A stretch of DNA of 64,000 nt from Christensenellales bacterium (GTDB lineage Bacteria; Bacillota; Clostridia; Christensenellales; UMGS416). Shown piece by piece: positions 48,879-57,238 of this stretch. Numbering within the stretch: position 1 is the stretch's first letter; the number at the start of each line of letters is the position of its first letter. Location: positions 1,891,079 to 1,955,078 of the forward strand of contig JBMNEH010000001.1 in NCBI GenBank assembly GCA_050948665.1, in the 5' to 3' direction. The notes below the pieces were generated by a model. That model saw nothing but the letters and a program-made list of their open reading frames with translations. It was not told the DNA's origin and made no database searches. The position numbers were made by a program, and so were the translations under genes.

Positions 48879-51800
48879 TTGTTCGAGCTTAATAATTTCG
48901 ATGCGATTCAAATCGGTTTGGCTTCCCCTGAAAAAATTCTGGAATGGTCCTATGGCGAGGTACTCAAGCCTGAGACCATTAACTACCGTACACTCAAACC
49001 CGAGAAGGACGGTTTGTTCTGTGAGAAGATTTTCGGACCCAGCAAGGACTGGGAGTGCCACTGCGGGAAATATAAACGTATCCGCCATAAGGGCATCATC
49101 TGCGATAAGTGCGGCGTAGAGGTGACCCGATCGAAAGTGCGCCGAGAACGCATGGCGCATATTCAACTTGCCGCTCCCGTATCCCACATATGGTACTTTA
49201 AAGGCGTACCCAGCCGTATGGGTCTGCTATTGGACATGAGTCTGAAGCTCTTGGATCGGGTGCTGTATTTCACTGCGTATGTGGTGACTGACCCCGGAGA
49301 TACACCCCTGACGCACAAGCAGGTGCTGACCGATGCTGAATACCGGGAGGCCGTCGACCGGTACGGCGACAGATTCAAAGCCGGAATGGGCGCCGAAGCC
49401 GTAAAAGATTTGCTGATGCAAGTAGATCTGGAAGCCGTGTCCGAAGAGCTTCGGGAGATATTGGAAAACGCCACCGGCCAAAAGCGGGCGAAAGCCATTA
49501 AGCGGCTGGAAATCATAGAAGCCTTCCGGAAATCCGGTAATAAGCCTGAGTGGATGATACTGGACGTGGTTCCCGTTATTCCTCCGGAATTGCGGCCTAT
49601 GGTACAGTTGGACGGTGGCCGTTTCGCCACCAGCGACCTTAACGACCTGTATCGCCGTGTCATTAACCGGAATAACCGACTGAAGCGCCTGCTGGAGTTG
49701 GGTGCACCGGAAATCATCATCCGAAACGAGAAACGCATGCTGCAGGAATCGGTGGACGCGCTGATCGATAACGGCCGCCGTGGTCGCCCTGTTACCGGTC
49801 CCGGAAACCGCGCTCTGAAATCCCTTTCGGATATGCTGCGGGGTAAACAGGGACGTTTCCGTCAGAACCTTTTGGGCAAGCGGGTCGACTACTCCGGCCG
49901 TTCCGTAATCGTCGTCGGCCCCGAGCTAAAGCTCTTCCAGTGCGGTCTTCCCAAGGAAATGGCGCTGGAGATGTTCAAGCCCTTTGTCATGAAAAAATTG
50001 GTGCAGGACGGCATGGCTCACAATATCAAATCCGCGAAACGCATGGTAGAACGGATAAAGCCCGAGGTATGGGATATCCTGGAAGAAGTGATAAAAGAAC
50101 ACCCCGTGCTGCTGAACCGCGCCCCGACTCTGCATCGTTTGGGTATACAGGCCTTCGAACCCATCATGGTGGAAGGCCGCGCCATTAAGGTACACCCCTT
50201 GATATGTACCGCCTTTAATGCGGACTTTGACGGTGACCAGATGGCCGTACACCTCCCCTTGTCTGTGGAAGCGCAGGCAGAAGCCAGATTCCTGATGCTG
50301 GCCACCAACAATATCCTCAAGCCCCAGGATGGCAAGCCTGTTGCCTCTCCCACCCAGGACATGGTCATGGGATGCTACTACCTGACGCTTGAGATCCCCG
50401 GCGCCAAGGGCGAAGGCCGCTGGTTCTCCGATATGGACGAGGCTGTCATGGCGTATGAGGCCGGCCAGATCACTCTGCATTCCAAGATCCATGTACGGAT
50501 ATTCCGGACAATCGGCGGGCAGGTGAAGGGCCAGGTCATCGAGACCACCGTAGGCAAGCTGATCTTCAATTCCGTCATTCCGCAGGATTTGGGGTTTGTA
50601 GACCGTTCCAATCCGGAAGATGCCTTCCGGCTGGAGGTGGATACCCTCGTCAAGCGCGGAACCCTCGCGCAGATTGTGGACCGTACCTACCGTGTTTATG
50701 GCAATATCCGCACTTCTGAGGTGCTGGATGCCATAAAGGCACTGGGTTTCAAGTACTCTACAAAGGGCGCTGTCAGTGTCGCGGTATCCGACATGGTCAT
50801 CCCCACGGAGAAGAAGGAGTACCTTTCCAGCGCCAACGACCGTATCAGGATGGTAGAGTCCAGCTATCGTGACGGCTTGATATCCGATGACGAGCGTTAC
50901 CGCGCCGTGGTGGAAACTTGGCAGAACACCACAAACAAGGTCACCAAAGCTCTGGAAAACGCATTGGATGTCCTGAACCCCATCTATATGATGAGTAATT
51001 CCGGTGCCCGGGGCAACATGAACCAGGTGCGTCAGTTGGGCGGTATGTGCGGATTGATCGCAGATCCCTCCGGCCGGATCATCGAGGTGCCTGTTCGTTC
51101 CAACCTGCGGGAGGGCATGTCCGTACTTGAATACTTCATCTCTTCCCACGGTTCCAGAAAAGGATTGGCCGATACCGCTCTGCGCACCGCAGACTCAGGT
51201 TATCTGACGCGCCGTCTGGTAGATGTTTCTCACGATATGATCGTCCGTGAGTCTGACTGCTTCGCAGCACGGGGCGAGCCCCCCAGAGGTATGACCGTAG
51301 CCGCCATCTATGACGAGTCCCGGGAGATCGAGAGCCTCAGTTCCCGTATTTGGGGGCGAACGATTATCGGCGATGTCATCCATCCCGCGACCGGTGAGAT
51401 ACTGGCCAAAGACAATACGATACTTACCGTTGATCAGGCCGATGCCATTGAAAAGGCCGGAATAAAGGAAGTCACCATCCGTACCGTTCTTACCTGTCGG
51501 AACGAAACCGGCGTCTGCGCAAAGTGCTACGGCATCAACCTGGCCACCGGACGGCCCGTTCACATCGGCGAGACCGTGGGCATCATCGCTGCCCAAGCCA
51601 TCGGCGAGCCCGGCACCCAGCTGACAATGCGTACCTTCCATACCGGTGGCGTCGCTATGTCAGAGGATATTACCCAGGGTCTTCCCCGTGTCGAGGAGAT
51701 CTTTGAGGCCCGCAAGCCCAAAGGACAGGCCGTTATTACGGAAATTGCCGGTAAAGTCTCCATGACAGAGGCTAAAAAGAAGCGCGAAATCACTGTCACC

Positions 51801-52451
51801 GGTGATGACGGTGAATCAAAGGTCTATTCCATCCCCTTCGGTTACCGCACAAAGGTATCCGACGGCGATGTGATCGAGGCGGGCGACAGCCTGACCGAAG
51901 GCCCCGTAAACCCCCATGACATTCTGAAAATAAAGGGGATCCGGGGTGTACAATCCTACATGCTCCGGGAGGTATTGACAACCTACCAGTCCCAGGGCGT
52001 CAACATTGCTGACAAACACCTGGAGGTTGTGATCCGGCAAATGCTTCGCAAGGTCCGTATTGAGGATTCCGGTGATACCGATATGCTGCCCGGCGAGTTG
52101 GTGGACATCTTTGACTTCGAGAAGAAGAACGAAGCCGTACTGCAGAACGACGGCCAGCCGGCCATCGCAAAGCGCGTGCTTTTAGGCATCACAAAGGCTA
52201 CTCTGGCTATCAACTCCTTCCTCGCCGCCGCTTCCTTCCAGGAAACTACCCGCGTACTCACTGAAGCTGCCATCAAAGGGAAGATCGACCCTCTTCTCGG
52301 TTGCAAGGAGAACATTATACTCGGCAAGCTGATTCCCGCCGGAACAGGCATGAAATGCTATAAATCCCTGAGGATCAATACCGAGAGTGAGGATGCTCCC
52401 ACGACGGTGGCCATTCCCATGACATTGGAAGATGTCGCTATGGACACCTGA
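48879..52451 (+). CDS. rpoC: RNA polymerase beta' subunit
   Basis: [14 protein letters not shown]...[32 protein letters not shown] start. Confidence 0.99.
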
Positions 52452-52464
52452 TATCACGATTATG

Positions 52465-52492
52465 CCCCGGCTCGCAGGAGCCGGGGATTTTG
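52465..52492 (+). terminator. Intrinsic terminator after rpoC
   Basis: ccccggctc-gcag-gagccgggg followed by atttt. Confidence 0.7.
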
Positions 52493-52667
52493 TCGTATTG
52501 TCAAATATCGTAATTCTTCCCTGTGAGATGCAGGGCCGTTCGAAAAGCAAGGTGGAAACCACCTCTGCCGCCATAGCCTTCCGTTTCTTCCGCGCTGAGA
52601 ACTCCGGGGCAAGCATCCGGAAAACATGATTATTATCGAACTTTTCAGGCTTTTTGATGAATAATCG

Positions 52668-52696
52668 TTGACATTACAAAATGATGATGATAAAAT
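52668..52696 (+). promoter_or_regulatory. sigmaA promoter of str operon
   Basis: TTGACA-17nt-TAAAAT. Confidence 0.8.
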
Positions 52697-52862
52697 AATT
52701 GGCGTGTGTTCCGACGAGGACGCAGACCATCCCGCATTTCGGTTGCTCGGAATCGGGAGGAGCAGCCCATGCTCATGGTCGGTCATCTGTCGGAGCTCCA
52801 TTTGTCTGCCGGCCCCCGGGGTTGCGGAGGCGGCCGACGCAAGAGAAAGGAGGTGCAGCGAA

Positions 52863-53243
52863 ATGCCTACCATTAACCAGATCGTGCGTATGGGCAGGGA
52901 GCGGAAGACCTATAAATCCAAGTCCCCTATCCTGAAGTCCAATCCTCAGAAGCGCGGCGTTTGCTTGGTCGTGCGTACTTTGACTCCCAAAAAGCCGAAT
53001 TCCGCACTCCGTAAAATCGCCCGCGTCCGCCTGACAGACGGCTCCGAGGGTACCTGCTATATTCCCGGTATCGGTCATAATTTGCAGGAACACTCTGTCG
53101 TTTTGATTCGCGGCGGTAAAGTGCGCGACCTGCCGGGTGTACGTTACCACATCATCCGCGGTACTTTGGACGCCTCTGGTGTTGCCAACCGTAAGCAGGG
53201 TCGTTCCCGTTACGGCACCAAGCGTGCCAGGAGCACTCGCTAA
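52863..53243 (+). CDS. rpsL: 30S ribosomal protein S12 (divergent)
   Basis: [39 protein letters not shown]; start ATG 52863 behind AAAGGAGG. Confidence 0.98.
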
Positions 53244-53379
53244 GAAGTGATTTTCCGGTCTTTTGATATTGCATAACCGCTTTCCAACGGAGGAACGCCC
53301 ACGGGAGCGTGCATGGATCTTGAATTGGCCGTATGGGTTAATATACCCGTTTTTGTAAAATTTTTTAGGAGGAAATCTC

Positions 53380-53850
53380 ATGTCAAGGCGCGGAGGAATT
53401 CCGAAACGTGATGTGCTCCCCGATCCCAAGTTTAACAGCGTTGTTCTCGCAAAAGTGATCAACCAAATTATGCTTGACGGTAAAAAGGGGGTAGCGCAAC
53501 GCGTCGTATATGATGCTCTGGATATCGTCGCCGAAAAAACCGGCAAGGATCCCATGGAAGTTTTTGAGCAGGGTCTGAATAATATCATGCCCATACTGGA
53601 GGTTAAAGCCCGCCGGGTCGGCGGCTCCACTTATCAGGTACCTATAGAAGTGCGCCCTGAGCGTCGTCAGACGCTGGGTATTCGTTGGCTCACCGAGTTC
53701 TCTCGCAATCGCGGAGAGAAAGTTATGAGCCAGCGCTTAGCCGCCGAAATCATGGACGCCGCCAACGGCGCCGGGAACGCGGTAAGGCGCAAAGAAGAAA
53801 TGCATCGTATGGCGGACGCTAACAAGGCCTTTGCCCATTATCGTTGGTAG
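53380..53850 (+). CDS. rpsG: 30S ribosomal protein S7
   Basis: [36 protein letters not shown]. Confidence 0.98.
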
Positions 53851-53922: not shown

Positions 53923-55995
53923 ATGCCAAGAGAATATCCTTTGGAAAAGTGTCGGAATGTAGGCATTATGGCACATATTGATGCCGGAAAAACCACAACC
54001 ACCGAACGTATCCTTTTCTATACCGGAAAGGTCCACAGGCTGGGAGAAACCCATGAAGGCGATGCCACAATGGACTGGATGACGCAGGAGATGGAGCGGG
54101 GTATCACTATTACATCCGCCGCTACAACCACCTATTGGCGCGGTTGTCTGATCAACATCATCGATACACCCGGACATGTGGACTTTACCGTGGAAGTGGA
54201 GCGCTCCTTGCGAGTGCTTGACGGTGCGGTCGCCGTATTCTGTGCCAAAGGGGGCGTTGAACCCCAGAGCGAGGCGGTCTGGAGGCAGGCCGACACGTAT
54301 GGTGTCCCCCGTATCGCCTATGTAAACAAAATGGACATTATGGGCGCCAATTTTCAGCGGGTCGTGGATATGATTCGTGACCGGCTGCATGCCAATCCCA
54401 TACCCGTTCAACTCCCCATCGGCAGAGAGGACGACTTTAAGGGTCTGATCGATCTGGTTCATATGAACGCCGTTTTCTATTCCGATGAGGATCAGGGAAG
54501 GGAATTGGATGTGGAGGAGATTCCGGCAAATATGTTGGAATCTGCCAAAGTGGCCCGTCAGGAATTGCTTGAAGCCGTCATCGAGACCGATGACACGCTT
54601 ATGGAAAAATATCTGGATGGAATCACGATCACTCCCGAGGAAATCATTGCCGGACTTCGGGCAGCAACCATAAAGAGTGCTCTGGTACCCGTTCTCTGCG
54701 GCAGTTCCTATCGGAATAAAGGCGTACAGCCCCTGTTGGATGCCATGGTGGACTATCTCCCCAGCCCTATCGATATACCGGATGTAACCGGTACCGACCC
54801 TGAGACGGGCGAGGATATTTCCCGCCCCTCCAGTGATGATGCGCCTCTTTCCGCCCTGGTGTTTAAAATTATGACCGATCCCTTTGTGGGTAAGCTGGCA
54901 TTCGTACGGGTATATTCCGGAAAAATCGCCTCCGGCGCGGGCGTGTATAACCCCTCCACACAAAAACATGAGCGGATCGGCCGTCTGCTGAAGATGCATG
55001 CCAATCACCGCGCTGAGGTAGAGGAAATCATTGCCGGAGATATTGCCGCGGTTGTCGGACTGAAGCAAGCCACTACCGGGGATACCCTCTGCGATGATCG
55101 TCATCCCATCATATTGGAAAGCATGGATTTCCCGGAACCCGTCATACAAGTTGCTATTGAACCCAAAACCAAGGCCGGCCAGGATAAGATGGCCGTAGCA
55201 TTGGTGAAAATGGCGGAGGAGGATCCCACCTTCCGCGCTTATACGGATTCGGAGACCGGGCAGACCATTATCGCCGGCATGGGAGAACTTCACCTGGAAA
55301 TCATAGTAGACCGCATGCTACGTGAATTTAAGGTGGAGGCTACAGTAGGCAAGCCCCAGGTTTCTTACCGGGAAACGGTACGTACGGCTGCCAGGGGCGA
55401 GGGGCGTTTCGTCCGTCAAACAGGCGGCCACGGACAGTACGGTCACGCCATTATCCAGGTACTTCCCGGCGAACCCGGTTCCGGTATCCAATTTGAAGAT
55501 AAAACCGTCGGCGGATCCATTCCCAAGGAGTTCATCAAACCCACCGAAACGGGTATCCGCGAAGCCATGTCCAACGGTCCTTTGGGCGGTCATGAACTGG
55601 TCGACTTAAAGGTTGAACTGCTGGACGGCAGCTATCATGAGGTTGATTCCTCCGAGATCGCCTTTAAGGTCGCCGGTTCCATGGCCCTGCGGGATGCCGT
55701 CGCGAAGGCCGATCCGGTACTGCTGGAACCCATTATGAGCGTGGAGATCGTCATCCCGGAGGATTATCTGGGAGATGTTATCGGCAACCTGAATGCCCGC
55801 CGCGGGCAGATCGAAGATATGGACATGGTGACAGGCTCTCGCCTTGTACGGGCCCACGTTCCCCTGTCTGAAATGTTTGGCTACGCAACGGATTTGCGGA
55901 GCCGTACTCAGGGACGCGGAGCGTTTACCATGCTCTTCTCCCATTACGCAGAAGTTTCTCCCGGAATCGCCGCAAAGATTCTGGGGAAAGTATAA
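53923..55995 (+). CDS. fusA: Elongation factor G
   Basis: [44 protein letters not shown]. Confidence 0.99.

Positions 55996-56026: not shown

Positions 56027-57238
<1,212 letters not shown>

Follow-up and report, generated by a model that had tools for sequence, protein, structure and literature searches.

Natural K88R in ribosomal protein uS12 (gene rpsL) is already known. In a screen of 15,721 species for rpsL resistance variants, Ngo, Letten & Engelstadter (2026; bioRxiv 10.64898/2026.06.09.731231) found a variant of their panel in 7.57% of the species, with 88R in about 70% of the carriers (~830 species); the carriers include all 70 Planctomycetia and 472 Sphingomonadales. The same work describes the fitness cost of K43R and K88R as low or none, and reports that position 86 is Arg in 99% of species, its codon being CGT in 60% and CGC in 16%, and that 86C is the only variant of this position in the resistance panel (10.64898/2026.06.09.731231). 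For R86K together with rpsL, a literature search found no paper.

The rpsL gene analysed here lies in a window of 64,000 nucleotides (the whole stretch of DNA that was analysed), and its product differs from the common RVKD motif at both of these positions. The preliminary description of the window read codons 86-88 as AAA GTG CGC, giving KVRD, and stated that Lys43 within PKKPNS is intact, that the RimO site Asp89 is present and that K88R is among the classic substitutions for resistance to streptomycin. All of this holds on re-examination, and the residues concerned are the following, with positions given in window coordinates.

52863..53243, + strand: rpsL, encoding ribosomal protein uS12, 126 amino acids (translation and TIGR00981 profile)
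52989..52991, + strand: codon 43, AAA, Lys (K43, wild type), inside TPKKPNSA (translation)
53046..53057, + strand: codons 62-65, E-G-T-C, in which EGT is an order signature and not species-specific
53118..53120, + strand: codon 86, AAA, Lys (R86K), the sole species-specific change in the motif (read directly)
53124..53126, + strand: codon 88, CGC, Arg; this K88R state is the usual one in the family (read directly)
53127..53129, + strand: codon 89, GAC, conserved Asp at the position that RimO methylthiolates (translation)

Against the NCBIfam profile TIGR00981 (rpsL_bact, 124 positions), the product scored 212.3 bits over residues 1-123, the cut-off being 112.95. This score, the str-operon context and the conserved motifs place the protein in bacterial uS12 (TIGR00981, Pfam PF00164), and a search of its own genome found a single rpsL copy. 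The protein aligns collinearly with E. coli S12, at least through residue 96, and is numbered here accordingly, with Met1 counted. Both the GG-x-V-x-DLPG loop, with D89, and PKKPNS, with K43, are conserved in the translation, and codon 87 is GTG, giving Val. The sequence of residues 56-69 is also as earlier described; however, the EGT found there, where E. coli uS12 reads EVTS in place of E-G-T-C, is common to the uS12 of 28 of 29 relatives as part of RLTxxxEGT (here RLTDGSEGT) and occurs also in Clostridia KVRD loci. Judged from these sequences, EGT is a clade signature.

If the KVRD codons were a sequencing or assembly artefact, or private to one strain, independent assemblies would be expected to disagree with them. 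The rpsL gene was base-for-base the same, AAA GTG CGC included, in 10 of 10 independent assemblies read, which come from different samples (among them SRR31066035, ERR6170126, JGI 3300060680 and GCA_046128195.1), the 3.4 kb around it are 99.9-100% identical across these assemblies, and the exact protein is recorded in 39 blocks of a public assembly collection. An artefact is thereby refuted at the assembly level; nothing was found in its favour, and we give this explanation practically no chance. Because rpsL is identical in the 10 independent assemblies, we take KVRD to be a fixed allele; Arg at E. coli position 88 is thus fixed in the species, as in the natural 88R alleles.

The surroundings of the gene are those of a standard str operon, in the order rpoC - rpsL - rpsG - fusA - tuf.

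48879-52451: rpoC (open reading frame list)
52452-52862: spacer between rpoC and rpsL, 411 nt
52465..52486, + strand: terminator-like hairpin directly 3' of rpoC (consensus match only)
52668..52696, + strand: site resembling a promoter, TTGACA-17-TAAAAT, its -10 element extended by TG; rpsL begins ~166 nt downstream (consensus match only)
53380..53850, + strand: rpsG (uS7), the next str-operon gene after rpsL (open reading frame; Pfam labels on identical contigs)
53923-55995: fusA, after rpsG (open reading frame; Pfam labels on identical contigs)
56027-57238: tuf, after fusA (open reading frame; Pfam labels on identical contigs)

The promoter-like site matches 11 of 12 consensus bases plus the TG, where one such site was found and 1.4 were expected in shuffled sequence; if used, it would give rpsL a leader of ~160 nt. 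An Rfam search of both spacers flanking rpsL (52300-53500) returned no match at E <= 1, and the rpoC-rpsL spacer is without an L7Ae-type gene. A 35-amino-acid open reading frame (52769-52876 of the window), called on identical contigs, overlaps the start of rpsL and is probably spurious.

To account for the two substitutions, the preliminary description proposed a compensated reciprocal swap, likely to bring intrinsic streptomycin resistance and a change in decoding fidelity or RimO recognition. On this reading R86K and K88R would be epistatically coupled, each making up for the other so that V87 has one Lys and one Arg at its sides, and the pair would have a phenotype of its own in decoding or in recognition by RimO. 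The uS12 of close relatives bears on this directly. We read the protein from 29 genomes, 21 of them of the same family, and the motif was RVRD in 21 of the 21 family members, including the nearest genome (G005, 91% identity), while those from other families of the order showed RVKD, RVRD, one RIKD and one KVKD. The uS12 of this nearest relative (protein P0002, 91-92% identical) shares with ours the operon and the stretch of residues 56-69, and differs in reading RVRD (AGG GTT CGG) where the genome here reads KVRD (AAA GTG CGC). The same picture emerged from a collection of 5.8 billion proteins, in which the 120 nearest uS12 clusters comprise 93 RVRD, 15 KVRD and 11 RVKD; RVRD is also the motif of the two clusters nearest of all, at 92% and 89% identity. 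Codon 86 of the nearest relatives is AGG or AGA, both Arg, and AAA is one G->A transition away. Since RVRD is found in every same-family relative read and in the closest relatives, K88R long predates R86K; the two changes were not simultaneous, which speaks against a reciprocal swap.

One relative in this set, G023 (L030 and G023:C12:52211-53512), had its uS12 and rimO matches each reported with one in-frame TAG; in the uS12 match this is the natural stop, overrun by a longer query.

The relation between the two positions was then examined at greater depth in an order sample of 146 genomes, drawn evenly, with the motif found in 136, and a phylum sample of 401 genomes, likewise drawn evenly, with the motif found in 340. 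All four Lys/Arg combinations occur in the order (RVKD 82, RVRD 40, KVKD 10, KVRD 4), while the Arg88 states of the phylum sample are 17 RVRD and one KVRD, the latter being the genome described here. Arg88 is therefore present in 44/136 genomes (32%) of the order against 18/340 (5%) of the phylum sample, an enrichment of about six-fold. Within the order sample, Lys86 accompanies Arg88 in 4/44 genomes (9%) and Lys88 in 10/92 (11%), with an odds ratio of 0.82 and Fisher p = 1.0, so that Lys86 shows no preference for the Arg88 background such as a coupled pair would display; KVKD is in fact commoner than KVRD (10 vs 4). KVRD was seen once each in four families (f1, to which the genome here belongs, f9, f16 and f167), all otherwise RVRD, which indicates that R86K arose several times on an Arg88 background. 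In four other families (f13, f18, f19 and f181; e.g. L022 = G040:C27:3609-3977), KVKD is the sole uS12 state seen, and Lys86 is thus tolerated without Arg88. These results do not sustain the reciprocal swap.

Elsewhere in the phylum, a single family, f33 (G045, G096, G178, G247, G278, G305, G331 and G383), supplies 8 of the 17 RVRD genomes of the phylum sample, from which it follows that natural Arg88 is clade-clustered there too.

The codons used at these two sites offer a simple account of how easily they change. Of the 122 order genomes with Arg86, 86 spell it AGA or AGG; Arg88 is AGR in 27 of 44, and Lys is AAR; with Arg mostly AGR and Lys AAR, each change between Lys and Arg in the order is a single transition. 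By the genetic code, no single change turns the Arg codons CGT or CGC into a Lys codon; two or more are needed. The use of AGR codons plausibly explains why Lys86 makes up ~10% of the order when Arg86 is found in 99% of species. Arg88, for its part, is spelled CGC, CGT, CGG, AGG or AGA across lineages of the order, and, with five different Arg codons in use, it looks old.

As the preliminary description had proposed, uS12 was also surveyed across GTDB. One genome per species was scanned for codons encoding GGKVRDLPG, and 120 matches were listed, ~13 of which are chance matches outside rpsL; at least ~107 species, from at least seven phyla, have a genuine uS12 KVRD among these 120. The matches listed include many Clostridia MAGs (Christensenellales, Pullichristensenella, Faecivicinus, Catabacter, Aristaeellaceae, Acutalibacter and Defluviitaleaceae), Chloroflexota (SAR202, Dehalococcoidia and Anaerolineales), Planctomycetota (Fimbriiglobus, Gemmatales and Brocadiales), Sphingomonadales (Sphingopyxis yananensis, Altererythrobacter and Erythrobacteraceae), and also Patescibacteria, a Vermiphilus MAG and Armatimonadota. 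Found as a genuine uS12 state in so many taxa, the KVRD "swap" is a recurrent natural variant. This recurrence in many phyla speaks for a coupled pair, as do the facts that the KVRD of Sphingomonadales and Planctomycetia falls on clades reported as 88R and that Arg86 is otherwise 99% conserved.

A coupled pair with altered RimO recognition can further be confronted with the enzyme itself. The same genome encodes a clear rimO equivalog (TIGR01125), which scored 431 bits (cut-off 357) and stands apart from two paralogues with scores of 283 and 236 bits; the protein thus has Asp89 and its genome the enzyme, as expected of a RimO substrate. In 39 of 40 relatives, covering RVKD, RVRD, KVKD and KVRD, rimO also scores above the cut-off, and the one relative in which it does not is a 75%-complete genome. 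With rimO kept whatever the motif, the suggestion of altered RimO recognition gains no support. Taking into consideration the RVRD of the family, the independence of the two sites and the retention of rimO in all four motif states, we regard the compensated swap as very improbable.

The other streptomycin-target routes, loss of rsmG and 16S rRNA changes at 523, 526 and 912-915, were looked for in the genome itself and none was found. The rsmG gene is present and intact (138 bits, cut-off 99.5). Each of the three rrs copies has the canonical 530 loop, GTGCCAGCAGCCGCGGTAATAC, and the canonical CAAA at positions 912-915, and neither the 5' end (U13, U14) nor the 1490 region departs from the canonical sequence; the three copies (L155, L156 and L157) gave the same result at every site examined. 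Thus, the checks of rimO, rsmG and 16S rRNA suggested in the preliminary description found both genes present and the target sites canonical. The sole nearby 16S difference from E. coli is A923G/U1393C.

This difference reads AAACTCAAAGGAATTGGCGG (A923G) and GCACACACCG (U1393C) in the 16S copies of the genome (G000:C1:248289-249810 and two others); it puts a compensated G-C pair in place of the A-U pair that helix 28 has in E. coli, and lies outside the streptomycin contacts. The fetched loci L155 and L156 differ somewhere, and those comparisons of the three copies that were made showed identity over the whole gene.

Taken together, we consider it highly probable that this is an ordinary single-copy uS12 in which Arg88 was inherited and Lys86 is one further conservative change fixed in the species, with sites 86 and 88 switching independently. 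In the whole family, and in about one in three genomes of the order, Arg88 would be the standing state; Lys86, within reach by a single AGA->AAA transition, would be a conservative change that is fixed in the species; and each site would switch between Lys and Arg on its own, the codons being mostly AAR or AGR. Insensitivity to streptomycin at the level of the ribosome is plausible: a ribosome with Arg88 should respond poorly to the drug, like K88R ribosomes of E. coli, mycobacteria and others, and its accuracy should be little affected. R86K exchanges one basic residue for another and is probably close to neutral, and Asp89 would still be methylthiolated by RimO. R86K may nevertheless not be fully neutral, given that Arg86 is 99% conserved across species and that R86C confers resistance.

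The biology of the host is relevant to what such an allele could be for. The named homologues are from Christensenellaceae, Clostridia and Butyricicoccus MAGs, and from these the host is likely a strict anaerobe, a Christensenellales-like member of the Clostridia that lives in the gut or in another anaerobic habitat. Members of Christensenella and Catabacter (Christensenellaceae) are strictly anaerobic (PMC8289216), and aminoglycoside uptake needs a respiratory chain, anaerobes being intrinsically resistant to all aminoglycosides (PMC5745468). Since anaerobes do not take up aminoglycosides, the whole cell would be resistant with or without Arg88, and any drug phenotype of the allele would be redundant in a strict anaerobe.

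This weighs on a different reading of Arg88, namely adaptive resistance, in which the allele was selected by streptomycin or by natural aminoglycosides. Such selection would fit with K88R being a classical high-level, low-cost resistance substitution and with the roughly six-fold excess of 88R in the order over the phylum sample (44/136 against 18/340). However, Arg88 is family-wide and old, being spelled by five synonymous Arg codons, which leaves no room for a recent sweep, and both rsmG and the 16S rRNA are wild type. Moreover, rpsL K88R is not expected to explain gentamicin resistance. In disc tests, strains of a cultured member of the Christensenellaceae, Luoshenia tenuis, were resistant to gentamicin as well as to streptomycin (PMC12325933), and the lack of aminoglycoside uptake in anaerobes also counts against selection by these drugs (PMC5745468). 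Adaptive resistance is accordingly unlikely in our judgement. Because the whole cell would be resistant with or without Arg88, drift of an allele of little or no cost is a likelier explanation than selection by streptomycin.

A further proposal starts from the frequencies themselves, which are 32% for Arg88 and 10% for Lys86 in the order against ~5% and at most 1% elsewhere. This order of anaerobic Clostridia might be an unreported hot spot in which either basic residue beside V87, at 86 or at 88, is free to change between Lys and Arg by drift; behind this could lie a relaxed constraint on the decoding loop and the streptomycin pocket where no aminoglycoside reaches the inside of the cell. We think this doubtful; if it were true, KVRD ribosomes could differ measurably from RVRD ribosomes in accuracy or in RimO efficiency. 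For the preferred reading, of an inherited Arg88 joined by a conservative Lys86, codon accessibility offers a simple reason for the fairly frequent Lys86, as Arg86 is usually AGR here and CGT or CGC in 76% of species.

The significance of the allele for biology at large is little. For the reading of genomes, it illustrates that rpsL residues that look like resistance are often the ancestral state of a lineage, and that a K88R flag, as long as relatives have not been looked at, is uninformative on drug exposure. With the Christensenellales-like order, one more clade joins the published map of natural 88R.

Compared with the described systems, the allele is closest to the published natural 88R alleles, for which intrinsic streptomycin resistance is predicted and in which Arg88 together with a wild-type K43 is the normal clade-wide allele, as it is here. 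It differs from them in that the 88R clusters named in the preprint are Sphingomonadales, Rickettsiales, Devosiaceae, Coriobacteriia and Planctomycetia, whereas the Clostridia order described here, with 32% Arg88, is not named, and in that the panel considers only 86C at position 86, and not K86, while the genome here has Lys86. With the K88R mutants (K87R in mature numbering) of E. coli, M. tuberculosis, Thermus thermophilus and Erwinia it shares the same residue change, in the loop beside D89. Those laboratory and clinical mutations, however, arose under drug selection and in an RVKD background, whereas here Arg88 is inherited and joined by R86K, in what is likely an anaerobe.
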